Below, piece by piece: positions 13,581 through 32,000 of a stretch of DNA of 32,000 nucleotides (its first letter is position 1; the number at the start of each line of letters is the position of its first letter). The notes beneath the pieces are model-generated. The model was not told the DNA's origin. It did no database searches and was given only the letters and a program-made list of their open reading frames with translations. Source of the DNA: Crocosphaera subtropica ATCC 51142. GTDB lineage: Bacteria; Cyanobacteriota; Cyanobacteriia; Cyanobacteriales; Microcystaceae. The stretch spans positions 3,060,001-3,092,000 of the forward strand of contig NC_010546.1 in NCBI RefSeq assembly GCF_000017845.1, in the 5' to 3' direction. The translations under genes were made by a program, and so were the position numbers.

Positions 13581-16500
13581 TTAACCAAAGACAAAGTGAT
13601 CAGCACTCAAACTACCAGCACTCACACCAAGCAGTTTGGCTAACTCATCGTCTCCAGTGGCAATTAAGGTATCGCCGTTTTCTTCACTGATCGTTAAACC
13701 GTCAAAGCCAATGCCCAAGCCAGCAATGCCCAAAACATCCGCTTCTAGGTCAAAGTCAGTGATGGTGTTGGCTGCTTCAGGAATCTCAGCCACAGCAAGC
13801 CAGAAACTGTCAGACCCTGCACCCCCTGTAACAACGTTATTACCCCCTAAGAGGAAGAAACTATCATCCCCTGCACCGGCAAAGGCACGGTCATTATGAC
13901 CGAGGATAAACGTATCATCGCCGGATTGTCCATAGAGACGGTTGCCTCCATTGCCCGCAACGGTATCAATGAAGTCATCTCCTGAGCCACCGAATAAGAT
14001 GTCATCAGTGCCATCAAACCCAGGAGTAACTCCTGCATCAAAGGTTTCCCCATCAAGACTACCAAACACAGGAAGCATCGATTCAGGGGAACTCTCTTCT
14101 AGCGTCGCCGTTAGCTCGTAGTCACCGTAAAATACCCCAATTTCTGGGAACGTCCAACCGCTACCGCTTCTGACCACATTGGGATCATAGTTACGGTTGC
14201 CTAGTAGACTGACACCGACATAGTAAGTCCCTGCTGTTTCAGCAGTAAACTCCAGATAGGGATCACGGGAGAATTCTTCCCCAGGGGCTGCACCATCACT
14301 ATTAGCAGCAAGTTCATTACCCTGTGCATCAAATAACCGTAATTCTGTATCCGTTTTCTGGGGCATTTCTACCAGTGCTGGATAGACGGTAAAACCATTG
14401 TTAGCAGGGGTGGGTTCCCCAGTATCAATATCGAGGGAAACCGTTTGTCCTGCTTCTAAAGTGATGGCGTACATATCCACATCTTCGGCAAACCCCAACC
14501 ATCTCTCAGGAGTTTGATTACTAGGCCCAGTAGCGGCAAGGGTTCCGTTAATGGAAACTGTGGGGGTTTGAGAACTTAAACCAAGGGCATTAGCTTCTGC
14601 TATGGTACTATTCCCCTCAATTTCTTCTGAAACACTGGCTTGATCTGGGGTATCTGCGATCGCAAAACTGGCTTGAGGGATTGCTTGGTTAATGAGATAA
14701 TTTTCACTGGGATCTAGACTAAAGAGTGCGGTTTCGCTGCCTTCTTCTACCCCATCATCCAGAACAGGGAGATTAATGGTGGCTTCCCGTTCAGTAATAT
14801 TGAAGTCAAAACCATCATCTCGCACCTCAGCAATGGTGCCACCCGCTGTATCAATAGCATCTAAATTAAATTCATCGAGGGCATCGGCACTGACACTGAC
14901 AGTTAAACCCTCTTCTGGGGGTGGGGAACTGAGGGTAAAGGTATGAACACTAACCGTTTCTTCTGACTCAATGAGGCTGGCTGGTGAACCTGTTAATCCC
15001 ACTTGAATCTTGGAGTCTGGGTTATCGGCAATGGTCAAGGTAATTTCACTGGCATCTGAATCAATGGTGTAACCTTCCTGGGGTTGTAGAGCAAAGGTTA
15101 TGTCAAACAGTCCCTCTTGTACCGTCACGGGATTATCGATCACCGTTAACTCATCAAACACTGACACGGTGATAGTGGCGGTTTGGTCAGTGATGGTGAA
15201 GAAAAAGCCCGATTCATCGCTATTGGGAACAGGGAAGTTGCCTCCTTCGATTTCTGCTTCAAGAACGGAAAACTGACCAAGAATACTACCGAGAAATGGC
15301 TCATCTTCGCTGTCCACAAATACGGTTATGCCCCCTTCTGGTGGTGCTTCGGATAGGGTAAAGCTAAAAGTGGTTTCCGTTTCTTCTGACTCAATGAGGA
15401 AAGTTTCACTCACCGTTAATCCCACTTCGGGAACAACATCTCCCCCACTTGGCGGTGGGACATCAGCCAGAGAGTCGTAGTAGGTTACCTCTGTGGTTCC
15501 GATTTCTGGGGCAACCTCGTAGCCTTCCCCTGGTTGTAGAAAGAAAGTGACATCTTCGGGCCCATCGGTTTCTAATCCTTCAAAGAGATCATAAAACCCA
15601 GTTGTATCGTGCTGGAAAGCGATAACAGGGTTACGATTCGCTCTTTCGAGATTAACAGTCATAGTGGGTTCATCGATGCGGAGTCGAATACCCGTAGGAA
15701 TACCTTCCTCGTTATAATATGCCCCTAGAGACTGTCCACCAACGGTGGTAGGAAGCTCATCTTGACCGAGATAGGAAACATAATCGAACAAATTAACATC
15801 GCTATTGAGAACAAATTCAATGCCCTCTTCCGGAATTTCTCCCTCGGCTTGAATGGTGAAGTTAACCCCAGAAATACCCCCAAGTTCCACAAATTCCACC
15901 ACTGCACTGGTAAAGTTCCCTTCGCTGTCTACGGTGGTGGGATTCGCACCCAAAGAAAGGGTAGGAGGATTGATAACATTGGGATTACTGACAGGGGGGG
16001 TGGGGGTTCCTGTTTTGCGTGGATTATCTTCTGTCAATAGGTTGATTTCCAGTTCATATAGACCGAAAGCAACTCGGTTGTCATCTCCTGAAGCCGGAAT
16101 CTCAATATCATAAGCAAGATCCTCACGGCCGTAAGATACGGGCGTGGCTGAGAGATAGGACGAAACCCCCACATAGTAGATGCCATCTTCTGAGGCGGTA
16201 AATTCTAAGTAAGTATCTGTTTCACTTTCAACGACGGTTCCATCATCCCGAAAAGCCCCTTCACCGACACCAAAAAGCTTATCGGGGGCAGCCGGGGTAT
16301 AAAGACCCGAAGAAATGAGTCGATTTCCTTCCGCGTCAAAAATAGCGACCCCTGAGAGATTACCAAATCGATTATTTACGTCACGATTCCCTTCTACTTC
16401 AAAGGTTTCGACGGCGATGGTATCTCCTGCGGTTAATTCTAATTTATAGAGGTCTACATCTTCGTTGTAGTCAACATAGGTGTAAGTGCCATCTTCGTTG

Positions 16501-18953
16501 AGATAGCGGTTGCCGATGTCAAAGTAGATAGAATCAACAGCAAAGAAGGAAGGGTTTTCGGGGGTAATTTGGGTGTCTGTGGCAAGGGAAACAATGTCAT
16601 TGGGTTCGGTCACAACCCCTCGCGGAATATCTGACCGTGTATCGACTAAGTTAAAGCTACCACCACTGTAATCTTCTACAATCTCATACCCATCTCCAGG
16701 GGCTAAACTAAAACTAGCGGTTTCTCCTGTTTCTGTTTCGCCATCATCGGCAATGGGCAAGTTTACCAATGTCGTATATTGAGTCATTCGCAGGTCAAAC
16801 CCACCATCACGGACTGCTTCGATGGTTCCTCCGTCCACGGAAATCCCTGCTAAGTCAAACTCGCTTAAGTTAGGCGCATCGACCGACACCACTAACCCGC
16901 CTTCGGGAATAGTGCCATTAGTTACATTAAAGGCATGAGCGGATACGGTTACCTCATCTTCGATCAAGTAACTAGGGCCAGTAAATAAACTTACTTGTAG
17001 AACATCCAACTCAGGCGGTTCTGGTGGTGGGGGTTCAGAAATCTCACTCAATTGACTCTCATCATCGACAAACAATACCGTAGAAGCAGCAGCATTGGGA
17101 TCAATGGTATAGTCCCCTAACGTTCCTACGTCTGCCAAATCTTCTGGTGCTACTTCAGTTTTCAACTCAAATACGGCTTCTACTAACCCATCAAAGGTTT
17201 CGGGTAGAAAGGTATCGGGTTCAGGATTATCAAATACGTCAATAGTAAAGGTTCCAAAGGTCGCCCCTTCATCAATGGTCAGGTAAAACCCTGAATTATC
17301 GAAGCTTGTGCCAAATAATGCAGGTTTAATGTTTTCCGTAATGGGATTAAAAGCAAACCCAGGTAAATCTAAACGATTGACAATTTGCTCAACATTACTA
17401 TCGACAAACACCTTTAAACCGCCTTCAGGGGCAGGTCCATCCAGGTCAAAGCGCACGGTCAAGGCGTTGCCTAAATCTTCAACCAAGGCGTTGAGATCGC
17501 CGTCAAAGTTAGTTGATGTTGATAAGCTTACTTGTGTTATAGTTTGATTTTTAATTGTGTCAACAATGGTCAAAGTCCCTGTTTGCGCTTCGGGATCAAC
17601 TTCGTAACCTTCTCCTGCTTCGAGGGAAAAGGTAGCGGTTTCTTCCCCTTCGATTTCTCCGTCATCAGCTACAGGTAAGGTTATCTGAGCGGTTTGTTCG
17701 GTTAAAGTCACCTCAAAGGTATCGTCAGCGATCCCTTGTCTATAGGGAGGCAAAATATCCCGAACCAGGTTATCGCGAGAAAAGCCGTTAATTAATTCAA
17801 TGTAGGTTAAGTCATCTTGAGGGGAATACCACATATTTGAGCGATATCCCAAAGTTTGCCCCCTGTGAGCATACCAAAAACGAATAGCAGATTCGAGGGT
17901 TCCTACTCCTAACCCATAGGAATCATAATTATTGTTGTCAATGGTAGGGATAACAGCAAGCATTTGCTCAAGGGTTTCGGGTTCTAGTAGTCGATCCTCT
18001 TTAAACAAACTACGGGCAAAGGTATCTAAATCTTGGGCATTAGAAATCATCGCCCCTGCTGTCCACGCCCAAGACAAACCTGCCGGGGTAATATTATCTA
18101 ACGTGCCATTGCTATCAAAATCCCAATAACCATTAACAAAGCCCCCAGGAACCGCTTCTTCTTGAGCAAAAAAGGTATTTTCCAGATTCAAAGGGGTGAG
18201 AATACGATTGCGGATTTCTTGGGCAATATTATTCCCTGTGGCTGCTTCAACAATTAATCCTGCTAAGATATAGTTCGTATTGGAATACTGCCAAGACTCC
18301 CCAGGCTCAAAGACAGGTTCTGCCCCATCAATTAAGTCCATTAATTGCTCTGGTTCCCACGGCCGCAAAAATACGGTCGGGTTGGTGGCTGCTTGGGTAA
18401 AGAGTATGTCTAAATAGTCGGCAATACCGCTTGTATGCTGCAATATTTGCCTGATGGTAATCTCTTGAGCATTGGGAATATCGGCGGTTAAGCTTTCGGG
18501 TAACCAAGTGGTCAAAGTATCTTCTAAGCTTAAAGAACCTTCTTCAACTAACTGTAAAACAGTGGTAGCCACAAAGGTTTTGGTAATACTGCCAATTTGA
18601 AAGCGATCGCTTGGTTGCAAAGGAATATTATTTTCTAAGTCAGCCACCCCACTGGTCCCATACCAACTGCCAAAAGGGGCAACAATGGCAACCACAGCCC
18701 CTGGTACTTCAGGGGTGCGAGTTCCATCTAATGCTGTCTGTAACTGTTGCTGAAGTTCGTCTTCTAGAGTAATGATCCCCCCTTCGATTTGTGCTTTACT
18801 CAGGTCAAACTCGGATAAGTTAGGAGCATTTAGCCTTACTACTATCCCATCAGGGGGAGGCGGTTCACTGAGACTGAGGGTCAGTAAAGAAAGGGTGGCT
18901 TCAGATTCAATTAAGCGTTCGGGTTCAAGGATTAAGCTGACTTTAGGTTCCAT
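13581..18953 (-). CDS. Giant (1790 aa) acidic RTX-type exoprotein with a beta-lactamase-like domain inserted in a Calx-beta-like domain, further Calx-beta-like domains, two PPC domains and a C-terminal Ca-binding repeat module
   Basis: The serine hydrolase domain has SxxK (S122-I-T-K), Y-S-N (Y223) and H-R-G (H363). Calx-beta-like signatures such as LPVADDGEIEGEETATFSL recur. PPC signatures are TEPND...DVDLYKLELTAGDT and DVDMYAITLEAGQT. The C-terminus has GGSGDDFID, GQSGDDTFI, GAGDDSFFL and GGAGSDSFW and ends in DHFVFG. I found no Cys codon. Confidence 0.9.
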   Translation of the reverse strand: MEPKVSLILEPERLIESEATLSLLTLSLSEPPPPDGIVVRLNAPNLSEFDLSKAQIEGGIITLEDELQQQLQTALDGTRTPEVPGAVVAIVAPFGSWYGTSGVADLENNIPLQPSDRFQIGSITKTFVATTVLQLVEEGSLSLEDTLTTWLPESLTADIPNAQEITIRQILQHTSGIADYLDILFTQAATNPTVFLRPWEPEQLMDLIDGAEPVFEPGESWQYSNTNYILAGLIVEAATGNNIAQEIRNRILTPLNLENTFFAQEEAVPGGFVNGYWDFDSNGTLDNITPAGLSWAWTAGAMISNAQDLDTFARSLFKEDRLLEPETLEQMLAVIPTIDNNNYDSYGLGVGTLESAIRFWYAHRGQTLGYRSNMWYSPQDDLTYIELINGFSRDNLVRDILPPYRQGIADDTFEVTLTEQTAQITLPVADDGEIEGEETATFSLEAGEGYEVDPEAQTGTLTIVDTIKNQTITQVSLSTSTNFDGDLNALVEDLGNALTVRFDLDGPAPEGGLKVFVDSNVEQIVNRLDLPGFAFNPITENIKPALFGTSFDNSGFYLTIDEGATFGTFTIDVFDNPEPDTFLPETFDGLVEAVFELKTEVAPEDLADVGTLGDYTIDPNAAASTVLFVDDESQLSEISEPPPPEPPELDVLQVSLFTGPSYLIEDEVTVSAHAFNVTNGTIPEGGLVVSVDAPNLSEFDLAGISVDGGTIEAVRDGGFDLRMTQYTTLVNLPIADDGETETGETASFSLAPGDGYEIVEDYSGGSFNLVDTRSDIPRGVVTEPNDIVSLATDTQITPENPSFFAVDSIYFDIGNRYLNEDGTYTYVDYNEDVDLYKLELTAGDTIAVETFEVEGNRDVNNRFGNLSGVAIFDAEGNRLISSGLYTPAAPDKLFGVGEGAFRDDGTVVESETDTYLEFTASEDGIYYVGVSSYLSATPVSYGREDLAYDIEIPASGDDNRVAFGLYELEINLLTEDNPRKTGTPTPPVSNPNVINPPTLSLGANPTTVDSEGNFTSAVVEFVELGGISGVNFTIQAEGEIPEEGIEFVLNSDVNLFDYVSYLGQDELPTTVGGQSLGAYYNEEGIPTGIRLRIDEPTMTVNLERANRNPVIAFQHDTTGFYDLFEGLETDGPEDVTFFLQPGEGYEVAPEIGTTEVTYYDSLADVPPPSGGDVVPEVGLTVSETFLIESEETETTFSFTLSEAPPEGGITVFVDSEDEPFLGSILGQFSVLEAEIEGGNFPVPNSDESGFFFTITDQTATITVSVFDELTVIDNPVTVQEGLFDITFALQPQEGYTIDSDASEITLTIADNPDSKIQVGLTGSPASLIESEETVSVHTFTLSSPPPEEGLTVSVSADALDEFNLDAIDTAGGTIAEVRDDGFDFNITEREATINLPVLDDGVEEGSETALFSLDPSENYLINQAIPQASFAIADTPDQASVSEEIEGNSTIAEANALGLSSQTPTVSINGTLAATGPSNQTPERWLGFAEDVDMYAITLEAGQTVSLDIDTGEPTPANNGFTVYPALVEMPQKTDTELRLFDAQGNELAANSDGAAPGEEFSRDPYLEFTAETAGTYYVGVSLLGNRNYDPNVVRSGSGWTFPEIGVFYGDYELTATLEESSPESMLPVFGSLDGETFDAGVTPGFDGTDDILFGGSGDDFIDTVAGNGGNRLYGQSGDDTFILGHNDRAFAGAGDDSFFLLGGNNVVTGGAGSDSFWLAVAEIPEAANTITDFDLEADVLGIAGLGIGFDGLTISEENGDTLIATGDDELAKLLGVSAGSLSADHFVFG

Positions 18954-19365: not shown

Positions 19366-19878
19366 ATGAGTATGATCGGACTGTTTTACGGTACAGAAAC
19401 GGGAAAGACCGAAACCACCGCAGAAATGATTCAATCAGAACTAGGAGGGGATAAGGTTGTCGAACTAATGGATATTGCTGATTGTGAGGCGACGGACTTA
19501 GAGAAGTATGATTATTTAATCATCGGTTGTCCAACCTGGAACGTAGGAGAGCTACAAAGCGATTGGGAAAGCATTTATGATGATTTAGACACTATTGATT
19601 TTAAAGGCAAACAAGTCGCTTATTTTGGTACAGGGGATCAAATCGGCTATAGTGATAACTTTCAGGATGCGATGGGAATGCTCGAAGAGAAAATTAGTCA
19701 ATTGGGGGGAAAAACCGTCGGTCATTGGTCAGTAGATGGCTATGATTTTGATGACTCAAAAGCGGTGAAAAACGGTAAGTTTGTCGGTTTAGCTCTCGAT
19801 GAAGATAATCAGTCAGACTTGACCGAAGAACGTATTAAAACTTGGGTTGCTCAACTTAAACAAGAGTTTAACCTCTAA
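19366..19878 (+). CDS. isiB: Long-chain flavodoxin
   Basis: 170 aa. The FMN-binding start is IGLFYGTETGKTE. PTWNVGELQSDW, YFGTGDQIGYSDNFQDA and the long-chain insert are present. Confidence 0.95.
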   Translation: MSMIGLFYGTETGKTETTAEMIQSELGGDKVVELMDIADCEATDLEKYDYLIIGCPTWNVGELQSDWESIYDDLDTIDFKGKQVAYFGTGDQIGYSDNFQDAMGMLEEKISQLGGKTVGHWSVDGYDFDDSKAVKNGKFVGLALDEDNQSDLTEERIKTWVAQLKQEFNL

Positions 19879-20659: not shown

Positions 20660-23600
20660 TTAACCAAAGACAAAGTGATCAGCACTTAAACTACCAGCAC
20701 TCACACCGAGTAGTTTGGCTAACTCATCGTCTCCTGTGGCAATTAAGGTATCACCGTTTTCTTCACTGATCGTTAAACCGTCAAAGCCAATGCCCAAGCC
20801 AGCAATGCCCAAGACATCCGCTTCTAGGTCAAAGTCAGTGATGGTGTTGGCTGCTTCAGGAATTTCACCAACAGCAAGCCAGAAACTGTCAGATCCTGCA
20901 CCCCCTGTAACAACGTTATCACCCCCTAAGAGGAAGAAACTATCATCTCCTGCACCGCCAAAGGCACGGTCATTATGACCCAGGATAAAGGTATCATCGC
21001 CGGATTGTCCATAGAGACGGTTGCCACCATTACCCGCAACGGTATCAATGAAGTCATCTCCTGCGCCACCGAATACGATGTCGTCAGTGCCATCAAAACC
21101 AGGGGTAACACCAGCATCAAACATTTCTCCGTCGAGGCTGCCAAACACAGGAAGCTCAACCACAGGAGGGGTATCATCAATGGTAAAAGACACATCAGAA
21201 GCATCAGGAGCAACTTCGTATTCTTCCCCGTTAACTAGGGAGAAGTTGAACGCTTCTAACCCTTCTCCTGGACCATCTTCAAATACAGAGAGAGTAATGC
21301 TGGCGTTGGAGTCAGTCAAAGTAACAAAGAAACTGCTGCCAATGCCATCGGCTGGAGTAGGTACGCCGTCAATACCGGTAGTTTCAAATAACGGTGTGCC
21401 ATTTTCATCAAATAGTGCAAATTCTCCGAGAGAGCCAGCCGTATCGCTAGTAACGAGAACTTCTAGACCCTCTTGAGGGATCTCACCATCAACCGCAAAG
21501 CCAAAGGTGAATTCTTCTCCTTCGGTGAGTTCGGTTTTGTCGATAGAGATGCCCACAGTGGGTCCGACACCAGGGCCACCATTACCATCAACTAACTCAA
21601 AACTACCCATATTGGCATCTGGGTTGACGGTGTAGTCTGAACCTTCGAGGTCTTCTAATAGTTCAAAATTGAAGGTAAAGGGATCTTCTTCAATGATGTC
21701 ATTGAAGGTGGGCAGAGTAATACTCGCAGTTTCTTCCGAGAGTATAAATTCAACAACAGTGGGTTGTGCTTCGTCAAAAAATGGTCCAAATGTCAGACCC
21801 TCAACACTAAAACTATCACCCAACTGGTCTAATAGGACATCAAGCTCTTTAACATCTAAGAAAACTGAGAGTCCACCAGAAACATAGTTACCCTCAGCAT
21901 CGAAGACTGCTTCAGGAACCTCGCCATCAACGGTAAAAGTGGCTGTAAAAGCAGCATTAGGATCTTCTTCTATGACCTGTTCAGGGGTAATGCTTAGACT
22001 AACTTCAGGTAGAGTCTGTCCATCCTCGATGGTGAAGTCTATAGAGCTTGCCACTGGATCGACTGCATAGCCTTCCCCTTCAGCTAGGGTATAGGTAAAG
22101 GTTTCAGTCCCTTCAACTTCATCATCTGGGAAAACAGGAACCGAGATAGTGGCGTTGGCTTCATCCATCCGGAAGAAGAAGCCACTGACATCGTTGTCTG
22201 TCCCAACAATTTCACCACCCGTTACTTGAACCCCTTCGACTTCCCCTGTGCGCGCATTGCCTTCAATATCGAATTCAGCAATAGCTCTTGCTACATTGCT
22301 ATCGAGGAAGACGGTTACGCCCCCTTCAGGAATTTCTCCTTGAGCGTTCAAGGACACTGTTAAAACGGTTTGTTCACTTTCAACCAGTGTTTCAGGTGTT
22401 GCGGTAACCCCAATGGTCGGGACATTACTAGGCAACTCCCCATCACTAACGGTGAAGGTGGCACTGTTAACCCCAGTTTCATCGAGGTTATAACCTTCCC
22501 CTTCAATTAAGGTCAAAGTGTACTCGGTATCCATTTCCTCAAAGATGTCATCGACTACGGGTAAGCGTAGGGTAGCATTGGCTTCGGTAATGGTGACTCG
22601 TTGTAGCAGTCTGAGAAAGTTTCCGTCTTCATCGGTAATAGTTGTACGAGAACCACTAGGAATGCTGATACCGACGTTATCTCCTCCATTGGAGGGATTA
22701 CTAATTTGAGTCCCTAATAAGAGGGGGTCGGTGGTTTCGAGAACCACTGTGGTGCCAGAGGCAGGAATGTCACCAATGGTGGTGAAGTTTAATTCTAATA
22801 CTGTGCCTTCGTCTTCTCTGAGTAGGGTGGGACTGCCACTCATGCTAACTACGGGTGGCTCTAGGACATCTTCGATGCTAAAGGTAACACTGGGTCGAGA
22901 AGAACGAACATTATAACTTTCCCCTTCGGCTAGGGCAAAAGTAAAGGTTTCAAGTCCTTCGGTTACATCATCGGAGAAGACAGGAACCGAGATAGTAGCG
23001 TTGGCTTGATCGATACGGAAGAAGAAGCCACTGACATCGTTGTCTGTCCCAACAATTTCACCACCCGTTACTTCGACCCCTTCGACTTCCCCTGTGCGCG
23101 CATTGCCTTCAATATCGAATTCAGCAATGGCTCTTGCCACATTGCTATCGAGGAAGACCTCTATACCCCCTTCAGGAATTTCTCCTCGAACGTCGAAGGT
23201 TAAGGTTAAGATGCTCGGCTCACTTTCGTAGAGGGTTCCAGGGGTAGCACGAACTCCGATGGTGGGGACTTCGTCTGGTATCATGCCATCACTAACGGTG
23301 AAGGTGGCACTGTTAACCCCAGTTTCATCGAGGTTATAACCTTCCCCTTCCACTAAGGTCAAAGTGTACTCGGTATCCATTTCCTCGAAGATGTCATCGA
23401 CTACGGGTAAGCGTAGGGTAGCATTGGCTTCGGTAATGGTGACTCGTTGTAGCAGTCTGAGAAAGTTTCCGTCTTCATCGGTAATAGTTGTACGAGAACC
23501 ACTAGGAATGCTGATACCGACGTTATCTCCTCCATTGGAGGGATTACTAATTTGAGTCCCTAATAAGAGGGGGTCGGTGGTTTCGAGAACCACTGTGGTG

Positions 23601-26116
23601 CCAGAGGCAGGAATGTCACCAATGGTGGTGAAGTTTAATTCTAATACTGTGCCTTCGTCTTCTCTGAGTAGGGTGGGACTGCCACTCATGCTGACTACGG
23701 GTGGCTCTAGGATATCTTCGATGGTGAAACTGATGCTTTTGCGGCCTTCTCTGACCTGATATCCTTCGCCGTCAAGCACTGTAAACGTGAAGTCTTCAGT
23801 GCCTTCAGTAACATCATCTTGAAAGACGGGTACTGTGATGGATGAAAACTCTTCGGTAACTCGGAAGAAGAAGCCACCGGCTGTCTCATTGGTGCCAACA
23901 ATGCTACCACCCACTACCACAGGTCCAGTGACCACAGTTTCATCTTCGGGTAAACGGGGGTTAGTTGCATTAACATCAAATTCGGCGATCGCCCTAGGGG
24001 GACCATCTACAAAGACAACTACGCCTTCAGGGGGAATCTCACCCCTTGTTCTAAAGTTAATAGTAATCGCTGTTTGTTCGCTTTCATAGAGGGTGCCAGG
24101 AGTTGAAGAGATTTCTACTCTTGGGCCAACACCACCCTCAACTCCATCAGTTAAGGTAAATGTGCCGGTGCTGGCTTCGCTGTTAATGGTGTAGCCTTCC
24201 CCTTCTACTAAAGTATAGGTATAGGTCGTGTCTGCTTCTTCAATGAGATCATCCAACACGGGAAGGGTAATACTAGCGTTGGGTTCAGTGATGGTAAAGC
24301 TGAAGTTACTCAGAAAACCATCTCCTGCGGCGGTAGGATCGGAGTTGCTTTCACTGGGATCTCCGTCTTCTAAGGAAAAGCGATCAAGCACTCCGCCAAC
24401 GATGAAGCCGTTATCGGGGTTAACAAAGCCGTTATCAAAGCGATAGAAGATGTTTCCTGTTTCTGAGTCGAAGCGAGTTTGCGCCACGGTGAACTGTTGC
24501 ATAATTCGAGCAACATCCCCTTCTAGGTTGACGGTGATGCCGTTTTCGGGAATCTCCCCATCCACGCTGAACTCCATTACCAACGCTGTACCTTCGGCTT
24601 CACTAATGACCTCTGGGGTGGTGCTGAAACTCACCACAGGGAAAGCAGGGACATCCCCATCCTCAATGGTTACATTGATAACACTGGCATCGGGATCAAT
24701 CTCATAGAGTTCCCCATCTTGTAAATTAAAGATGAGGGTTTCCTCTCCTTCAGCCACATCGTCTTGAAACACCGGAACGGAAATAGTCGCTGTAGGTTCA
24801 AAAATTCGGAAGAACACCGAGCCAGCTACCTCATCGGTGCCGACAATGTTGCCACCGGTGACAACGACCCCTTCTACCACTGTCTCATTTTCGGGTAACC
24901 GTGGGTTAGTGGCATTGACATCAAACTCGGCGATCGCCCTTGGGGGTCCTTGCAACTGCACCACCAAACCGTCAGCGGGAATATCTCCTTCCGTGGTAAA
25001 GGTAATTTCAAAAACGGTCTGTTCTGACTCAAGTAGGGTTGTGGGGGTGGCTGTCACCCCAACGGTGGGACTGGTGGCAGGGGTTACCCCATCGGTTACG
25101 GTAAACGTGCCACTGTTAGCGGTTTCGTCAACGGTGTAGCCGTCCCCTTCTACCAGGGTATAGGTGTAGGTGGTGTCTGCTTCTTGTAGGATGTCATCAG
25201 ACACCGGCAAGGTAATACTGGCGGTTGGCTCCGTGATGGTGAAGCTGAAGTTACTTAGGAAGCCTATACCTGCGGCCTCGGGGTCGGAGTTATCTTGAGC
25301 AGGGTCACCATCTTCTAGGGAGAAGACCTCAAGGGTTCCACCCACGAGTCCCGCCCCCGGTCCAAAGGAAGTGTCAAAGCGATAAAAGATGTTGCCCTCG
25401 TCAGTAACTCGGGTTTGAACCGCTCCGTCTCCATCGGGTGCCAGAAACTGTTGGAGAATTTCCGCCATATCCCCTTCTAAGAAAACGGTGATGCCGTCTT
25501 CGGGAATCTCCCCGTCCACGCTGAACTCCATTACCAACGCGGTACCGTCCGCTTCATTAATAACTGTTGGGGTGGTGCTGAAACTGACTACAGGTGGATC
25601 ACCGTCACCAATATCCGGTAACTGACTCACATCATCAGCAAATAACACTAGGCTAGTAGCTGCTGCTGGATCGATGGTATAGTCACTGATGCCTGTGATA
25701 TCGACTGCATCTTCGTCACTGACTTCATCTGCTGTTTTGACTGAGAAAGTGGCTTCGACTAAACCATCGAAGGTTTCGGGTAAAAAGCTATCAGGTTCGG
25801 CATTATCAAAAATGGGAATAGTAAAACTACCAAAGGTCGCTCCTTCGCTAATGGTTAACGCTATTCCAGAGTTATCAAAATCAGTTCTAATAGAGGCTGG
25901 ACTAATATTTTCCGTAACGGGGTTAAAGGCAAAGGTGGGTAAGTCGAGTCGGTTCAGAATTTGTTCGACATCGCTATCAATAAAAACCCTCAAACCCCCT
26001 TCAGGGGCGGGTTCATCGAGATCCAAACGAAGGGTTAAAGCTGTACCAAGGGTTTCAACGAGGGCGTTTAACGCACCATCAAAGTTGGTTGAAGTTGATA
26101 AACTAACTTGGGTCAT
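20660..26116 (-). CDS. Giant (1818 aa) acidic Calx-beta-like repeat exoprotein with a C-terminal RTX module
   Basis: More than 10 repeats carry Calx-beta-like signatures (SVPVFQDDVAEGEETLIFNL, LPVVDDIFEEMDTEYTLTL and similar). The C-terminal 164 aa are about 96% identical to gene 1, including DHFVFG. I found no Cys codon. Confidence 0.9.
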   Translation of the reverse strand: MTQVSLSTSTNFDGALNALVETLGTALTLRLDLDEPAPEGGLRVFIDSDVEQILNRLDLPTFAFNPVTENISPASIRTDFDNSGIALTISEGATFGSFTIPIFDNAEPDSFLPETFDGLVEATFSVKTADEVSDEDAVDITGISDYTIDPAAATSLVLFADDVSQLPDIGDGDPPVVSFSTTPTVINEADGTALVMEFSVDGEIPEDGITVFLEGDMAEILQQFLAPDGDGAVQTRVTDEGNIFYRFDTSFGPGAGLVGGTLEVFSLEDGDPAQDNSDPEAAGIGFLSNFSFTITEPTASITLPVSDDILQEADTTYTYTLVEGDGYTVDETANSGTFTVTDGVTPATSPTVGVTATPTTLLESEQTVFEITFTTEGDIPADGLVVQLQGPPRAIAEFDVNATNPRLPENETVVEGVVVTGGNIVGTDEVAGSVFFRIFEPTATISVPVFQDDVAEGEETLIFNLQDGELYEIDPDASVINVTIEDGDVPAFPVVSFSTTPEVISEAEGTALVMEFSVDGEIPENGITVNLEGDVARIMQQFTVAQTRFDSETGNIFYRFDNGFVNPDNGFIVGGVLDRFSLEDGDPSESNSDPTAAGDGFLSNFSFTITEPNASITLPVLDDLIEEADTTYTYTLVEGEGYTINSEASTGTFTLTDGVEGGVGPRVEISSTPGTLYESEQTAITINFRTRGEIPPEGVVVFVDGPPRAIAEFDVNATNPRLPEDETVVTGPVVVGGSIVGTNETAGGFFFRVTEEFSSITVPVFQDDVTEGTEDFTFTVLDGEGYQVREGRKSISFTIEDILEPPVVSMSGSPTLLREDEGTVLELNFTTIGDIPASGTTVVLETTDPLLLGTQISNPSNGGDNVGISIPSGSRTTITDEDGNFLRLLQRVTITEANATLRLPVVDDIFEEMDTEYTLTLVEGEGYNLDETGVNSATFTVSDGMIPDEVPTIGVRATPGTLYESEPSILTLTFDVRGEIPEGGIEVFLDSNVARAIAEFDIEGNARTGEVEGVEVTGGEIVGTDNDVSGFFFRIDQANATISVPVFSDDVTEGLETFTFALAEGESYNVRSSRPSVTFSIEDVLEPPVVSMSGSPTLLREDEGTVLELNFTTIGDIPASGTTVVLETTDPLLLGTQISNPSNGGDNVGISIPSGSRTTITDEDGNFLRLLQRVTITEANATLRLPVVDDIFEEMDTEYTLTLIEGEGYNLDETGVNSATFTVSDGELPSNVPTIGVTATPETLVESEQTVLTVSLNAQGEIPEGGVTVFLDSNVARAIAEFDIEGNARTGEVEGVQVTGGEIVGTDNDVSGFFFRMDEANATISVPVFPDDEVEGTETFTYTLAEGEGYAVDPVASSIDFTIEDGQTLPEVSLSITPEQVIEEDPNAAFTATFTVDGEVPEAVFDAEGNYVSGGLSVFLDVKELDVLLDQLGDSFSVEGLTFGPFFDEAQPTVVEFILSEETASITLPTFNDIIEEDPFTFNFELLEDLEGSDYTVNPDANMGSFELVDGNGGPGVGPTVGISIDKTELTEGEEFTFGFAVDGEIPQEGLEVLVTSDTAGSLGEFALFDENGTPLFETTGIDGVPTPADGIGSSFFVTLTDSNASITLSVFEDGPGEGLEAFNFSLVNGEEYEVAPDASDVSFTIDDTPPVVELPVFGSLDGEMFDAGVTPGFDGTDDIVFGGAGDDFIDTVAGNGGNRLYGQSGDDTFILGHNDRAFGGAGDDSFFLLGGDNVVTGGAGSDSFWLAVGEIPEAANTITDFDLEADVLGIAGLGIGFDGLTISEENGDTLIATGDDELAKLLGVSAGSLSADHFVFG
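22022..23713. repeat. 2 x 846-bp (282-aa) tandem duplication inside giant gene 2
   Basis: The period of 846 nt follows from the identical antisense ORFs at 22518-22709 and 23364-23555. Segment 22439-22877 is about 99% identical to 23285-23723. The other half of each unit is clearly more diverged. An older duplication of about 954 bp links roughly 24548 and 25502. Confidence 0.85.
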
Positions 26117-26579: not shown

Positions 26580-29500
26580 TTAAATGTCTATTTCCTTTCG
26601 TTGTTTAGTTGAATCAACCAAAGAAGGTTGAACAGATAGTTGAATCACATTAATTCGCTCTGCTAAACTCGCTACTGTCGGTTTTTCAAACAGAGTACGC
26701 AAGGGTAAATCTAAAGAAAGCGTTTGACGTAAACGAGAATTAATACGAGTCGCTAAAAGAGAATTACCCCCTAATTCAAAAAAGTTATCATCAACACTCA
26801 AACTATCAATTTTAAGAATTTCTCGCCAAATGTCTGCAATTTTCCTTTCAATGGTATTACGAGGGGCAATGACTTCCTTTTTACTCAACTGACTTAAAGC
26901 AAGCAACGCCTTTCGATCTAGCTTGCCATTAGGCGTTAACGGGAAACTTTCTAAGGTCACAAAAGCACTGGGAACCCCATAACTGGGTAATTTTTGCTCT
27001 AAAAACTGACGCAGTTTCTGAGAAATGTCTTCTGTTTGAGACGTTTGAATATAAGCAATCAGTCGGCGATCGCCTGATTCAAATTCTTTAGCAAGAACCA
27101 CACAGGCAGTGATATCGGGATGCTGGCTTAAAATTGTTTCTATTTCCCCCAACTCAAGACGAACCCCACGAATTTTTACCTGATTATCAATTCTCCCTAA
27201 ATATTCTAAATTGCCATCTTCTCGGTATCTAACAAGATCCCCTGTTCGATATAACCGTTCTCCCGGTTGAAAAGGGTTGGGAACAAAAGAGTGGGCTGTT
27301 AAGTCGGGTCGATTGAGGTATCCTCTAGCTAGTCCTTCTCCCCCTAAATATAGTTCCCCTGCGACTCCGACAGGCAGTAACTTCTGTTGGGCATTGAGAA
27401 CATAAACTTGAATATTATCAATAGGTTTGCCAATGGGAACGGAGTAGTCATCGGGAAGACAAGTCCAGGCGGTAACATCGATCGCTGCTTCGGTAGGACC
27501 ATAAAGATTGTGTAATTCAGCCTTTACGGTTTGGAAAAAGCGATTTTTTAAGTCCACAGATAAGGCTTCCCCACTACAAATAACCCGTTTCACGGAGTGA
27601 CACTGAGATGCGTTTGCTTCTTCGAGGAAAACTTGAAGCATAGACGGGACAAAGTGGACAGTAGTAATGTTTTGCTCAATGATTAAATTGGCCAGATAAC
27701 CACTATCTTGATGTCCCCCAGGTTTTGCTACCACCAAACAAGCCCCATTTAACAGCGTCCAAAGAAACTCCCACACAGACACATCAAAGGTGTAAGGGGT
27801 TTTTTGTAAAACACGGTCATCAGGGGTTAAATTATAAGCCTTCTGCATCCAATTTAAGCGATTTAACACGCCTCGATAGGTATTAACGACTCCTTTGGGG
27901 TTTCCTGTTGAACCTGATGTGTAAAGGGCATAAATGCTATTATTTGGCGTGGTTTGAGGTGTAAGATTGGTCTTCGGATATTGGGAGAGTTTAAAGTAAT
28001 CTCTGTTTAAATGAATCAGGGTTTCAACGGGACAGTTAGAAAAATTTTGATCCGTGAGCAAGATAGAGCTTTGAGTATCATGAAGGATAAACTTAATGCG
28101 TTCTAAAGGGTAAGTTGGTTCAATGGGAACATACGCTCCTCCTGCCTTAAGAATGGCTAAAATAGCAATTACCATCTCTAAAGACCGTTCTAAGCAAATA
28201 CCCACTAAAGTTTCTGGTTTTACCCCTAAACTCTGTAAATGATGGGCCAATTGGTTGGCTTGGCTGTTCAGTTCTTGATAAGTTAATTCTTGATTGTCAA
28301 ACGTAACAGCAATATGATTAGGGGTTTTCTCAACTTGTCTTTCAAACAGTTGAGGAATGTAAAGCTCCCTGCTTCCTGCTCCCTGCTCCCTCTGCTCCCT
28401 GCTCCATACTCCCTGCTGTTGTTCCGGTAATAAGGGTATCTGCCACAATAGTTGTTGAGGATTTTCTATAATGTGGGTTAATAGAGTTTGAAAATGTGCT
28501 AATAAACGATTAATCACTGCATCAGAAAAGCGATCGCAATGATATTTCATCTTAATTGATAATTCGCTTCCCCCTCCTACTAAAATCGTTAAGGGTAGAC
28601 TGGTCCATTCCGTAGACTTAACGCTTTCGATGGTCAATGTTTCGCTGAGTTGAGCCACCGAGGGATCAACAGGATAATTTTCAAACACCAGAATTGTGTC
28701 AAATAAAGGCGTACCTGGGGGTAAATCACTGTTTTTCTGAATTTCTAGTAAGGATACATATTCATACTGCGAGGATTCTCCTTGTTCAACTTGTAGCTGT
28801 TTTAACCAAGGAATTAGCTTTGCTTGGGGAGGAACCTGAACCCGCACGGGAAGGGTATTAATAAATAACCCCACCATTGAATTGATTCCTTCTAGACTGG
28901 CTGAACGTCCGGAACCCGTTGCGCCAAAAATAATATCATCTTCACCGCTATAATAACTTAATAATAATGCCAACGCTCCTCTAATTACGGTATTTAAGGT
29001 TAATTCTTGTTGCTGTGCCAAAGATTTTAAAGCAGTGGTGGTTTGAGGAGATAAGGCGATTTCTTGCTCTGCTTGTGAGCTATTTTCTGCCAAAATACCG
29101 CTTTTTCCTGGAACGTTCCAACTGGTAGGTGTGGTAAACCCTTTTAATTTCTGTTTCCAAAACGTCTTAGCAACTGTTTCATCTTGTTGCTGTAACCAAC
29201 TAATATAGTCACCGTAGGGACGAGGATGATTAAGGGATAAATTACCATCCCCATGATACTGTTGAAAGACCTCTTTAACCACTAATCCCGATGACCACCC
29301 ATCTAGAATTAAGTGATGTTGTGTCCAAACTAAATAATAACGATTTTTTGCTAAATAAATCAACTTTAGACGTATTTGAGGCGGATTTTTTAAATCAAAA
29401 TCCCGTTTTCGCTCTTTTTCTAAAAATTCTTGTAACTTTTGTTCTTGTTCTTCGGGAGAAATATCTCGCCAGTCCTGTTCTTCCCAAGGTAACTTAACCT

Positions 29501-29750
29501 CACGATACACCGCTTGAAATGGGCGATCGCGTTTTTCCCAATGAAAAGAGACACGGAAGGGTTGATGTCTAGCAATAATAGTTTTCCAAGCTTGTTTAAA
29601 CCGAGGAATATTTAAAGCACCCACTAAGGTCAAACATAGTTGAGGTTGATAAACCCCAGAATGAGGAGTTAAAAGAGTATGGAATAAAATGCCCTGTTGT
29701 AGAGGGGAAAGGGGATAAATATCTTCAATATTTTTTTTCTTATCTATCAT
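26580..29750 (-). CDS. Single-module non-ribosomal peptide synthetase (C-A-T), with no TE/R release domain
   Basis: C domain: YPLSPLQQGILFH and HHLILDGWS. A domain: LYTSGSTGNPKG, FDVSVWE, NLYGPTE, GELYLGGEGLARGY, YRTGDL, VKIRGVRLELGEIE and NGKLDRKAL. T domain: FFELGGNSLLA. The protein ends about 45 aa after the T domain. Confidence 0.93.
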   Translation of the reverse strand: MIDKKKNIEDIYPLSPLQQGILFHTLLTPHSGVYQPQLCLTLVGALNIPRFKQAWKTIIARHQPFRVSFHWEKRDRPFQAVYREVKLPWEEQDWRDISPEEQEQKLQEFLEKERKRDFDLKNPPQIRLKLIYLAKNRYYLVWTQHHLILDGWSSGLVVKEVFQQYHGDGNLSLNHPRPYGDYISWLQQQDETVAKTFWKQKLKGFTTPTSWNVPGKSGILAENSSQAEQEIALSPQTTTALKSLAQQQELTLNTVIRGALALLLSYYSGEDDIIFGATGSGRSASLEGINSMVGLFINTLPVRVQVPPQAKLIPWLKQLQVEQGESSQYEYVSLLEIQKNSDLPPGTPLFDTILVFENYPVDPSVAQLSETLTIESVKSTEWTSLPLTILVGGGSELSIKMKYHCDRFSDAVINRLLAHFQTLLTHIIENPQQLLWQIPLLPEQQQGVWSREQREQGAGSRELYIPQLFERQVEKTPNHIAVTFDNQELTYQELNSQANQLAHHLQSLGVKPETLVGICLERSLEMVIAILAILKAGGAYVPIEPTYPLERIKFILHDTQSSILLTDQNFSNCPVETLIHLNRDYFKLSQYPKTNLTPQTTPNNSIYALYTSGSTGNPKGVVNTYRGVLNRLNWMQKAYNLTPDDRVLQKTPYTFDVSVWEFLWTLLNGACLVVAKPGGHQDSGYLANLIIEQNITTVHFVPSMLQVFLEEANASQCHSVKRVICSGEALSVDLKNRFFQTVKAELHNLYGPTEAAIDVTAWTCLPDDYSVPIGKPIDNIQVYVLNAQQKLLPVGVAGELYLGGEGLARGYLNRPDLTAHSFVPNPFQPGERLYRTGDLVRYREDGNLEYLGRIDNQVKIRGVRLELGEIETILSQHPDITACVVLAKEFESGDRRLIAYIQTSQTEDISQKLRQFLEQKLPSYGVPSAFVTLESFPLTPNGKLDRKALLALSQLSKKEVIAPRNTIERKIADIWREILKIDSLSVDDNFFELGGNSLLATRINSRLRQTLSLDLPLRTLFEKPTVASLAERINVIQLSVQPSLVDSTKQRKEIDI
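28364..28414. repeat. Heptanucleotide tandem repeat (coding strand AGGGAGC, about 7 units plus 2 nt, 51 nt in total) in the NRPS C-A linker
   Basis: The plus strand reads GCTCCCT GCTTCCT GCTCCCT GCTCCCT CT GCTCCCT GCTCCAT ACTCCCT. It is translated in frame as GVWSREQREQGAGSREL. Confidence 0.8.
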
Positions 29751-29838: not shown

Positions 29839-32000
29839 TTAACCAAAGACAAAATGATCTTCATCCAGTTGAGTCGCCTCAATGTCTAATAAAAGACCGA
29901 AATTTTGTCCGTTGCTAGAGATTAGGGTATTACTGCCTTGTTGAGTCAACGTTAAATCCTCGTAACTCACACCTAAACCACCAATTCCTAATGTATCAAC
30001 ATCAAGTTCAAAATCGGTGATGGTATCAATATCATTAGGTATTTCACCTAAAGCAAACCAAAACTGATCGGCTCCTGTTCCCCCTGTAATAACATTGCGA
30101 TCGCCAAGAAGATAAAAAATATCATCTCCGCCACCTCCAAAAGCTCGGTTGTTGTCACCCAAGAGGAAAGTATCATTACCAGATCCACCATATAAACGGT
30201 TACCACCAGTTCCTGCTGTTGTGTCAATGAGATCATTTCCTGAGCCTGCGAAAACGATATCATCAGTCCCATTAAAGTCGGGAGTAACGCCAGCGTCAAA
30301 GGTATCATTCCCAACAGTCCCAAAGGACAAGATTTCTTCGGTAACAGGTGCTTCAGTCACTTCGAGGGTAACAGTTGTCGTGTCAGAATTATCAGTTCCG
30401 TCATTTGCTTGATAGGTAAAGCTATCTGTCCCTGAAAATCCTTCATTGGGGGTATAGGTAAAGGAACCATCTTCATTGAAATCAAGGGTTCCATTACTTG
30501 GCCCTTCGTCCACAATAGCACTTAAAGGATCACCATCAGCATCTGTATCATTATCTAACACATTACCGGTAATAGCAGCATTTTCTTCCAGGCTATAGCT
30601 ATCATCAGTGGCCACAGGAGGGGTATTCACAGGAGGTGGCGTAATACCGTCAATGGTAATAGTTGCTGTGGCTGTATCCGTTCCTCCTTGTCCATCACTG
30701 ACAGTGTAGTTAAAGCTATCAGTGTCGGTTTCTCCGTCTTCTAAGTTGTCAAAGACTCCATTGGGGTCATAACTATAACTGCCATCACTGTTGAGGGTTA
30801 ATAATGCACCTGAAGCTAAGGTAACTTGACTACCAACATCAGAAGCTTGTCCATTAACTTCAGTAACACTGAGACTGTCTCCATCCGCATCACTATCGTT
30901 GGTTAAAACATTACCAGCAAGAGAAGCATTTTCAGGGGTACTGTTGCTATCATCAGTGGCCACAGGAGGGGTATTCACAGGAGGTGGCGTAATACCGTCA
31001 ATGGTAATAGTTGCTGTGGCTGTATCCGTTCCTCCTTGTCCATCACTGACAGTGTAGTTAAAGCTATCAGTGTCGGTTTCTCCGTCTTCTAAGTTGTCAA
31101 AGACTCCATTGGGGTCATAACTATAACTGCCATCACTGTTGAGGGTTAATAATGCACCTGAAGCTAAGGTAACTTGACTACCAACATCAGAAGCTTGTCC
31201 ATTAACTTCAGTAACACTGAGACTGTCTCCATCCGCATCACTATCGTTGGTTAAAACATTACCAGCAAGAGAAGCATTTTCAGGGGTACTGTTGCTATCA
31301 TCAGTGGCCACAGGAGGGGTATTCACAGGAGGTGGCGTAATACCGTCAATGGTAATAGTTGCTGTGGCTGTATCCGTTCCTCCTTGTCCATCACTGACAG
31401 TGTAGTTAAAGCTATCAGTGTCGGTTTCTCCGTCTTCTAAGTTGTCAAAGACTCCATTGGGGTCATAACTATAACTGCCATCACTGTTGAGGGTTAATAA
31501 TGCACCTGAAGCTAAGGTAACTTGACTACCAACATCAGAAGCTTGTCCATTAACTTCAGTAACACTGAGACTGTCTCCATCCGCATCACTATCGTTGGTT
31601 AAAACATTACCAGCAAGAGAAGCATTTTCAGGGGTACTGTTGCTATCATCAGTGGCCACAGGAGGGGTATTCACAGGAGGTGGCGTAATACCGTCAATGG
31701 TAATAGTTGCTGTGGCTGTATCCGTTCCTCCTTGTCCATCACTGACAGTGTAGTTAAAGCTATCAGTGTCGGTTTCTCCGTCTTCTAAGTTGTCAAAGAC
31801 TCCATTGGGGTCATAACTATAACTGCCATCACTGTTGAGGGTTAATAATGCACCTGAAGCTAAGGTAACTTGACTACCAACATCAGAAGCTTGTCCATTA
31901 ACTTCAGTAACACTGAGACTGTCTCCATCCGCATCACTATCGTTGGTTAAAACATTACCAGCAAGAGAAGCATTTTCAGGGGTACTGTTACTATCATCAG
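29839..32000 (-). CDS. Cadherin-like / VCBS-type tandem-repeat exoprotein with a C-terminal RTX module; 5' end lies outside the window
   Basis: The repeats read PPVATDDSNSTPENASLAGNVLTNDSDADGDSLSV...FNYTVSDGQGGTDTATATITI. The C-terminus has GSGNDLID, GGSGNDTFL, GGGDDIFYL and GGTGADQFW and ends in DHFVFG. nt 31675-32000 repeat the in-frame unit with one synonymous change, so the GTG at 31674 is not the real start. Confidence 0.88.
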   Translation of the reverse strand, partial: DDSNSTPENASLAGNVLTNDSDADGDSLSVTEVNGQASDVGSQVTLASGALLTLNSDGSYSYDPNGVFDNLEDGETDTDSFNYTVSDGQGGTDTATATITIDGITPPPVNTPPVATDDSNSTPENASLAGNVLTNDSDADGDSLSVTEVNGQASDVGSQVTLASGALLTLNSDGSYSYDPNGVFDNLEDGETDTDSFNYTVSDGQGGTDTATATITIDGITPPPVNTPPVATDDSNSTPENASLAGNVLTNDSDADGDSLSVTEVNGQASDVGSQVTLASGALLTLNSDGSYSYDPNGVFDNLEDGETDTDSFNYTVSDGQGGTDTATATITIDGITPPPVNTPPVATDDSNSTPENASLAGNVLTNDSDADGDSLSVTEVNGQASDVGSQVTLASGALLTLNSDGSYSYDPNGVFDNLEDGETDTDSFNYTVSDGQGGTDTATATITIDGITPPPVNTPPVATDDSYSLEENAAITGNVLDNDTDADGDPLSAIVDEGPSNGTLDFNEDGSFTYTPNEGFSGTDSFTYQANDGTDNSDTTTVTLEVTEAPVTEEILSFGTVGNDTFDAGVTPDFNGTDDIVFAGSGNDLIDTTAGTGGNRLYGGSGNDTFLLGDNNRAFGGGGDDIFYLLGDRNVITGGTGADQFWFALGEIPNDIDTITDFELDVDTLGIGGLGVSYEDLTLTQQGSNTLISSNGQNFGLLLDIEATQLDEDHFVFG
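30598..32000. repeat. Tandem array of 348-bp (116-aa) repeats, at least 4 copies and identical as far as I can read, running off the window
   Basis: The marker GCCACAGGAGGGGTATTCAC occurs at 30611, 30959, 31307 and 31655. The copies align without mismatch by eye, except for one G/A difference near 31990. A diverged fifth unit lies at about 30330-30597. Confidence 0.9.

Follow-up and report, generated by a model that had tools for sequence, protein, structure and literature searches.

A penicillin-binding-type S12 peptidase domain predicted to be nested within a split beta-sandwich of a cyanobacterial RTX protein

What is a serine hydrolase doing between two segments that each resemble half of another domain? 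This question is raised by gene 1 (13581..18953, minus strand), one of two giant RTX genes in a 32,000-nucleotide stretch of the Crocosphaera subtropica ATCC 51142 genome (NC_010546.1, positions 3,060,001 to 3,092,000; hereafter the window, in whose own numbering coordinates are given). Gene 1 is an open reading frame (ORF) of 1790 amino acids, and its multidomain product, of 192 kDa, strings together sandwich and PPC domains and ends in an RTX tail. A preliminary description, made from the letters of the sequence, had placed a beta-lactamase/DD-peptidase-like serine hydrolase inside a Calx-beta-like domain at 17556..18953, in a cysteine-free host with an RTX tail. These coordinates correspond exactly to residues 1-466 of gene 1. 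The features of the host were borne out as well: the protein has 0 Cys and an acidic pI of 4.05, and the RTX family PF00353 matched residues 1686-1716 with 26.8 bits against a cut-off of 23. PF00144, PPC, and RTX were the only Pfam families matched in gene 1. Its start codon is sound because stop codons lie just upstream in the AT-rich leader and because the orthologues start at the same position. We consider it probable that gene 1 encodes a nested module of sandwich and S12 peptidase within a type-I-secreted RTX protein, and that this module is an extracellular D-peptidase standing on a rigid pedestal.

The two segments that flank the enzyme are encoded at 18768..18953 (residues 1-62, carrying a conserved L-I-E-x-E motif) and at 17556..17732 (residues 408-466), on the minus strand like all the features of gene 1 given below. 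When gene 1 was compared with itself by BLAST, residues 4-61 matched residues 653-711 (E 5e-12) and 1317-1374 (E 1e-12), and residues 406-466 matched residues 712-772 (E 7.5e-16) and 1377-1443 (E 6e-14). The regions matched belong to two intact paralogous copies of the sandwich, copy A (16629..17012, residues 648-775), which served as the reference for the unsplit domain, and copy B (14634..15020, residues 1312-1440). The matched segments adjoin in the intact copies, at 711/712 and at 1374/1377, and are 345 residues apart in the N-terminal copy. After residues 1-61 and 409-466 had been spliced together, they aligned with the intact copies over the full length at 44% identity, broken only by a gap of 2 to 3 residues at the junction.

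The structure of residues 1-475 was modelled with AlphaFold2 on an alignment of 53 sequences. The mean predicted local distance difference test score (pLDDT) was 92.6 and the predicted template modelling score (pTM) was 0.90. By block, the pLDDT was 81-94 over residues 1-62 and 84-92 over residues 408-466. A pTM of 0.90 would be unexpected were a quarter of the chain unplaced. DSSP assigned strands to residues 4-8, 13-16, 21-28, 37-42, 55-57, and 59-62 in the N-terminal half and to residues 412-417, 421-428, 438-445, 450-452, and 458-465 in the C-terminal half. Copy A modelled on its own had a pLDDT of 92.7, and its DSSP states were the same as those of the spliced halves at 86% of the 119 aligned positions, with an element-by-element correspondence. 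Strands 62-68 and 71-76 of the intact-copy model form a hairpin, and the turn of that hairpin is the place occupied by the enzyme in the split copy. The insert opens with a helix (65-78) two residues past the last strand of the N-terminal half and closes with another (397-407) four residues before the first strand of the C-terminal half. Since the linkers are short at both ends (2 and 4 residues), the connection is probably rigid. A Foldseek search with the full module returned only matches to the penicillin-binding protein (PBP) fold and was thereby no direct test of the sandwich. At the level of the models, residues 1-62 and 408-466 were confirmed as the two halves of one beta-sandwich. The preliminary description had seen these residues as split halves and had called for a structure model of the N-terminal region; in that model both halves are confidently structured with the strands of the intact copy, and a complete sandwich on one side of the hydrolase alone was not found.

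The domain between the halves (17733..18767, residues 63-407) scored 204.2 bits for PF00144 over residues 82-393 (cut-off 27, E 3.9e-60). Alignment to the Streptomyces R61 DD-peptidase placed three catalytic motifs in register: S122-I-T-K125 (18579..18590), which supplies the catalytic serine and lysine, with R61 S62/K65; Y223-S-N225 (18279..18287), a YxN motif, with Y159/N161; and H363-R-G365 (17859..17867), an HxG motif, with H298-T-G300. The serine hydrolase with an SxxK serine, a YSN tyrosine, and an HRG motif noted earlier was therefore found in place, at 204 bits. Across the 53 aligned relatives, Ser122, Lys125, Tyr223, and Gly365 were invariant and His363 nearly so. The proteins P0001, P0002, P0017, and P0018 have Y-S-S for Y-S-N with the other catalytic residues intact, which may mark a variant of specificity or activity. 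The closest solved structures by sequence were the D-stereospecific hydrolase dHy1 (9s7k, E 4e-53) and the Bacillus cereus alkaline D-peptidase (ADP; 4y7p, E 3e-52), followed by the R61 DD-peptidase (1cef, E 7e-50) and a Streptomyces D-amidohydrolase (3wwx, E 1e-44). Foldseek gave E values of 5e-31 to 8e-29 for matches of the two-lobed PBP fold, with target-normalised template modelling (TM) scores of 0.85 (1hvb), 0.88 (9s7k), and 0.87 (4y7p). As judged from its sequence and its model, the insert is a complete MEROPS S12 (PF00144) domain of the R61/alkaline-D-peptidase type. The family keeps the nucleophilic serine, the lysine, the tyrosine, and the HxG motif without or almost without variation, and for this reason the insert is most likely an active acyl-serine hydrolase.

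The insert has a fold in common with R61, ADP, dHy1, and the D-amidohydrolase (1cef/3pte, 4y7p, 9s7k, and 3wwx), at target-normalised TM scores of 0.82-0.88 and 31-33% identity, and the H-R-G variant of the third motif is common to dHy1 and the insert. These four are free-standing single-domain enzymes, whereas the gene 1 copy sits within a loop of a sandwich in an RTX protein. Arg285 of R61, which binds the terminal carboxylate of the substrate, aligns with a Gly in gene 1, and ADP also lacks this arginine. Because Arg285 is not conserved, a D-stereospecific endopeptidase or amidase of the ADP/dHy1 type is favoured over a strict DD-carboxypeptidase. A strict R61-like DD-carboxypeptidase is disfavoured by the same substitution, and membership in S12 is unaffected by it.

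We next turn to the host domain, which the preliminary description had called Calx-beta-like. The delimitation of domains by profile that it had suggested succeeded for the hydrolase, which was bounded to residues ~63-407, and failed for the host: no Pfam match to PF03160 (Calx-beta) was obtained in gene 1, and PF03160 against 10 spliced or intact copies of the sandwich at E <= 10 gave noise only. A profile of the sandwich searched against PDB sequences yielded NCX1 matches alone, none of them significant, with CBD2 at an E value of 0.56. Foldseek with the intact copy returned weak matches (E 1.5e-3 to 2e-2, TM 0.42-0.58) in which Calx-beta domains were mixed with sandwiches of adhesins, pilins, and integrins. 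The Calx-beta entries among them (3e9t, 3rb7, 2qvm, 3gin, 3fso, and 2dpk; Calx CBD1, CALX CBD12, NCX1 CBD1/2, and integrin beta4) had E values of 7e-3 to 2e-2 and TM scores of 0.42-0.51. Homologous repeats in gene 2 (20660..26116, minus strand), the paralogue of gene 1 in the window, do pass the Pfam Calx-beta cut-off, with 38.7 bits against 27 and the best stretch at residues 1314-1358. The C-terminal half in gene 1 matches residues 1313-1375 of gene 2 at 47% identity (E 4e-14). The name therefore held for the gene 2 homologues and, loosely, for the host domain, which is an immunoglobulin (Ig)-like sandwich that resembles Calx-beta at the superfamily level only.

The host and the Calx-beta domains of PF03160 (NCX1 CBD1/CBD2 and integrin beta4) are alike in being Ig-like sandwiches of ~120 amino acids and in having an acidic D-D-x-x-x-E-x-x-E loop ahead of a hydrophobic F-x-L strand. 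In gene 1, this loop (D430-D-G-E-I-E-G-E-E438, 17640..17666) is a putative Ca2+ site. Its core, D431-x-x-x-E435-x-x-E438 (D/E/E at 0/+4/+7) followed by F-x-L, is kept in the split and the intact copies, and it aligns with the DDxxYE loop of NCX1 CBD2 in the match with an E value of 0.56. Conserved acidic residues are contributed by both halves, the N-terminal one with L-I-E-x-E and the C-terminal one with the DDGExEGEE loop and a terminal Asp. By strand parity in the model, the insertion hairpin and the acidic loop would lie at the same end of the sandwich.

To see how far the module is distributed, relatives were collected from a search of 5.8 billion proteins. About 20 proteins covered 97-100% of the nested module. 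The carriers named to organism were all cyanobacterial and nearly all marine, and they included Calothrix parasitica NIES-267, Plectonema cf. radiosum LEGE 06105, and many marine metagenome-assembled genomes (MAGs). Among 1.84 billion cluster representatives, searched exhaustively with HMMER, 3583 were relatives at E <= 1e-30, and only ~10 of these matched from residue ~1 to ~466 without a break, so that the module is rare. When the intact copy was the query of a homology search, 13 fragmentary gene 1 orthologues were all that came back, and the search was uninformative on the wider family. A typical member of the family consists of the module, a variable middle, and an RTX tail, with 620-820 amino acids in total. 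P0137 (residues 317-784) and P0010 have the module at an internal position, and it occurs in tandem in P0134 and in a Plectonema ORF (locus L001, 8001..11327). Because it is found N-terminally, internally, and in tandem, the module acts as a single evolutionary unit. The Plectonema ORF (plus strand) is uninterrupted over 1108 amino acids and carries the nested module twice in tandem; P0022, the public protein (637 amino acids), begins at the second of these copies, and the deposited annotation may use an internal start.

The enzyme clade also has forms that are not nested. In P0135 and P0136, the nested module is followed by a second copy of the enzyme without nesting. Un-nested enzymes are found at the extreme N terminus of the RTX-tailed proteins P0041 and P0045 and at the C-terminal side of two intact sandwiches in P0033. 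P0032 and P0049, from Nostocales and 60-65% identical to the insert, are free-standing, with a Sec-type signal peptide and a PEP-CTERM-like tail (VPEP, then a hydrophobic stretch and a basic tail). From these signals, the clade seems to use at least two export routes that are unrelated. A neighbour-joining tree of the enzyme domains contained two nested clades with bootstrap values of 98 and 100 of 100. Monophyly of the nested forms was recovered in 18/100 replicates versus 57/100 for nested clade 1 together with un-nested forms, and the tree is compatible with one insertion or with two. In Calothrix parasitica NIES-267 (L008, 1..8693) and Plectonema (L001, 99..3878), the giant PPC proteins are separate genes upstream, with the short nested-peptidase RTX gene (786-1108 amino acids) downstream of them. 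This suggests that the peptidase module and the PPC scaffold were joined into a 1790-amino-acid protein by gene fusion or domain shuffling in the lineage of the window. On the chromosome of Crocosphaera watsonii WH 8501 (L005, 8001..10501), the orthologue ends at about residue 400, just before the C-terminal half. It is disrupted by an insertion sequence (a DDE_3 transposase and helix-turn-helix ORFs) and is probably a pseudogene.

In the modelled module, the complete peptidase domain breaks the sandwich at the hairpin turn that joins strands five and six, and its N- and C-terminal helices run directly from and back into the sandwich. For the working of the module, we infer the export route, Ca2+ binding, catalysis, and substrate as follows. 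As a Sec-independent acidic RTX protein, the product would be exported unfolded, C terminus first, via a type I system and would fold after export in Ca2+-rich seawater. The sandwich would be completed only after the N-terminal half had emerged. Ca2+ bound by acidic residues of both halves beside the junction could then fix the enzyme on its pedestal, where it would hydrolyse extracellular peptides that contain D-amino acids, for example peptidoglycan stem peptides or non-ribosomal peptides. Export is indicated in gene 1 by the RTX match, the lack of Cys, and the pI of 4.05, and no N-terminal signal peptide or hydrophobic N terminus was found when the protein was inspected for one. The RTX nonapeptide repeats and, at the C terminus, a putative signal for type I secretion are encoded at 13581..14081 (residues ~1625-1790). 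Relatives of the enzyme in the same clade all bear export signals, either Sec with a PEP-CTERM-like tail or RTX tails. The PBP fold has its terminal helices on one face of the central sheet, with the all-alpha lobe and the active-site cleft on the other. Because these helices face away from the cleft, the sandwich is more likely a mount than a lid.

Several points weigh against this interpretation. The pairing of strands between the two halves is deduced from pLDDT, pTM, and DSSP, and the Calx-beta family of Pfam does not match this subtype of sandwich. The motif behind the putative Ca2+ site matches NCX1 CBD2 without significance. Within the window, there are no type I secretion genes. As for the enzyme, some family members have Y-S-S rather than Y-S-N as the second motif, PF00144 also includes esterases and non-peptidase enzymes, and substrate specificity is not readable from sequence.

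The design has a precedent in RTX adhesins. In MpIBP, Vibrio cholerae FrhA, and Aeromonas hydrophila AhLap, split Ig-like extender domains project a ligand-binding domain whose termini are adjacent, which is a hallmark of these proteins; the projected domains include a carbohydrate-binding module, a peptide-binding domain, a von Willebrand factor A domain, and an RTX roll, and split domains serve as a diagnostic of binding domains (PMC12077191, PMC10865825, bioRxiv 10.1101/2025.09.30.679566). As in gene 1, an Ig-like sandwich of an RTX-tailed protein is interrupted by a complete foreign domain and then completed, which leaves the functional domain projecting from the chain. The adhesins depend on Ca2+ and leave the cell by type I secretion, as the gene 1 product probably does. 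The insert in the adhesins is a binding domain, whereas in gene 1 it is a PBP-fold enzyme of 345 amino acids with intact catalytic residues. In the adhesin domains the split follows strand 1 or precedes the final two strands, but in gene 1 it is mid-domain, between strands 5 and 6. RTX adhesins have an N-terminal retention module and an array of BIg extenders; the Pfam scan of gene 1 found neither, and the enzyme is at the N terminus. The hosts of the present module, in contrast, are cyanobacteria, and many of its members are short proteins of enzyme plus RTX tail. In the split-domain papers whose texts were searched, the words peptidase, hydrolase, lactamase, and cyanobacteria do not occur. 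According to a 2026 survey, domain insertion occurs in ~20% of multidomain proteins, and neither PF00144 nor the Calx-beta family was mentioned in its text or in the supplements searched (PMC13114784). In the open-access literature, we found no description of this architecture. The earlier suggestion that it was undescribed needs to be narrowed, since the split-domain principle is already known in RTX adhesins; a PBP-fold enzyme as the insert was not found described.

This precedent suggests another function for the insert, which might be mainly a ligand-binding or adhesion domain for peptides of the D-Ala-D-Ala type or for peptidoglycan, on other cells or on the sheath, with catalysis secondary or absent. 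The architecture is the same in principle as the split domain and ligand-binding domain of the RTX adhesins, gene 1 as a whole encodes 192 kDa of sandwich and PPC domains in a chain that ends in an RTX tail, and the adjacent gene 2 has the same scaffold without the insert. A binding domain is nevertheless unlikely given the catalytic residues that are invariant (Ser122, Lys125, Tyr223, and Gly365) or nearly so (His363) in the 53 sequences. Many members are also short (620-650 amino acids, module plus RTX tail), like classical type-I-secreted enzymes, and gene 1 matched no retention module or BIg extender. If the insert is an enzyme, it could be a secreted beta-lactamase or carboxylesterase instead of a peptidase, given that the PF00144 fold is common to class C beta-lactamases and family VIII esterases, that EstB, IS11, and EstCE1 are among the matches, and that the closest characterised relative, the alkaline D-peptidase, is a class-C-type PBP (PMC4570186). 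The matches to DD-peptidases, D-peptidases, and D-amidohydrolases are, however, better by 25-30 orders of magnitude, and a class C beta-lactamase was rejected because the NCBIfam bla_class_C model scored 62.2 bits against a cut-off of 415. We regard either activity as very unlikely. That the nesting itself is an artefact, from mis-assembly, an error of gene fusion, or unrelated half-domains that do not assemble, was conceivable since the gene is repetitive and its orthologues are often fragmented in metagenome assemblies. This idea is effectively refuted by the same order of N-terminal half, enzyme, and C-terminal half, with the same junctions, in independent isolates and MAGs, among them the complete chromosome of Calothrix parasitica NIES-267 and Plectonema cf. 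radiosum LEGE 06105. The module has moreover been duplicated and moved as a unit, and its model is confident.

The substrate could alternatively be linked to non-ribosomal peptide synthetase (NRPS) genes nearby, with the enzyme serving in the extracellular maturation of a product, the cleavage of a pro-drug, or self-resistance, like S12 enzymes of the ClbP, BogQ/TriF, or Lip3/Lip7 type, or as a SurE-like cyclase. NRPS-related genes were found within ~10 kb of the nested-peptidase gene in 6/7 loci. The window has a stand-alone condensation-adenylation-thiolation (C-A-T) module at 26580..29750 (minus strand), within that distance of gene 1. C-A-T modules also occur in Plectonema (L001, 13085..16480), in the MAG J06621_15 (L002, 9770..11629, running off the contig end), and in Calothrix parasitica (L008, 15526..18903), and two further MAG loci (L003, 6310..9631; L004, 11435..14804) contain a CmlA-like diiron hydroxylase and a thioester reductase, both with TubC docking domains. 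The action of S12 peptidases on lipopeptides with D-residues is documented (PMC12903863). L001, L002, and L008 carry orthologous NRPSs, at 72-83% identity to one another, but the NRPS of the window shares only 42% identity with these and is located on the gene's opposite side, and its orthology to this set was rejected. No epimerisation domain was detected, and the common neighbourhood may merely reflect the shared ancestry of related genomes. SurE is among the structural matches, but its E value (4e-22) is far weaker than the ~1e-52 of R61 and ADP. A SurE-like PBP-type thioesterase was also set aside in view of the C-terminal neighbour, which is the second half of the sandwich and not a lipocalin-like domain, and of the RTX export tail; the transmembrane helices of the ClbP type are lacking as well. 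A role tied to the NRPS is, in our judgement, quite unlikely, and an extracellular D-peptidase mounted on a split sandwich is the reading that we prefer.

An extension of the D-peptidase reading, which we offer tentatively and think unlikely, is that the module is a natural calcium-gated enzyme. With both ends of the peptidase held by a sandwich whose putative Ca2+-binding residues are drawn from each half and sit next to the junction, its active geometry would be reached only after the full N terminus had left the type I secretion channel and met the millimolar Ca2+ of seawater. If so, a potentially self-damaging D-peptidase or PBP-like activity would stay silent inside the cell, and the module would be a natural counterpart of engineered beta-lactamase domain-insertion switches. 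In such switches (TEM-1 beta-lactamase in maltose-binding protein; PMC3375305, PMC2490766), an enzyme of beta-lactamase fold is likewise joined by both termini to a ligand-binding host. They are artificial, of class A, often circularly permuted, and selected for allostery, whereas the gene 1 module is natural and its coupling to Ca2+ is hypothetical. The module offers a natural test case of a large alpha/beta enzyme inserted in the hairpin of a putatively Ca2+-dependent sandwich, in which control by Ca2+ is testable. If the D-peptidase reading is right, the split-domain design of RTX proteins would mount enzymes too, beyond displaying binding domains. The public annotation "serine hydrolase" would then conceal a small and conserved family of cyanobacterial S12 D-peptidases outside the cell, which could act on peptidoglycan fragments or on natural products with D-residues in marine microbial mats. 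Such enzymes would bear on nutrient scavenging, inter-species conflict, and biocatalysis, where D-stereospecific peptidases are sought after.

Gene 2 encodes a Cys-free protein of 1818 amino acids with a pI of ~4.05, an RTX/secretion tail, and no enzyme module. Its start (MTQVSLSTSTNFDG...) coincides exactly with the start of domain 2 of gene 1 (residue ~472), with 48% identity over 350 amino acids, and it looks like the gene 1 scaffold minus the enzyme module. At their 3' ends, the two genes share 94% identity over 496 nt and the encoded tails are 90% identical, which suggests that the secretion tail was recently duplicated or underwent gene conversion. Between the two giant genes, a flavodoxin gene (19366..19878, plus strand) stands by itself on the strand opposite to theirs, and its placement raises the question of whether the locus is expressed under stress, for example at low iron. 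Two other genes of the window, on the flanks of the locus, probably encode surface or secreted proteins. One (29839..31674, minus strand) has a product of 611 amino acids with four Big_9/cadherin-like repeats, and the other (46..894, plus strand), cut by the start of the window, encodes the C-terminal portion of a protein with a choice-of-anchor I domain.

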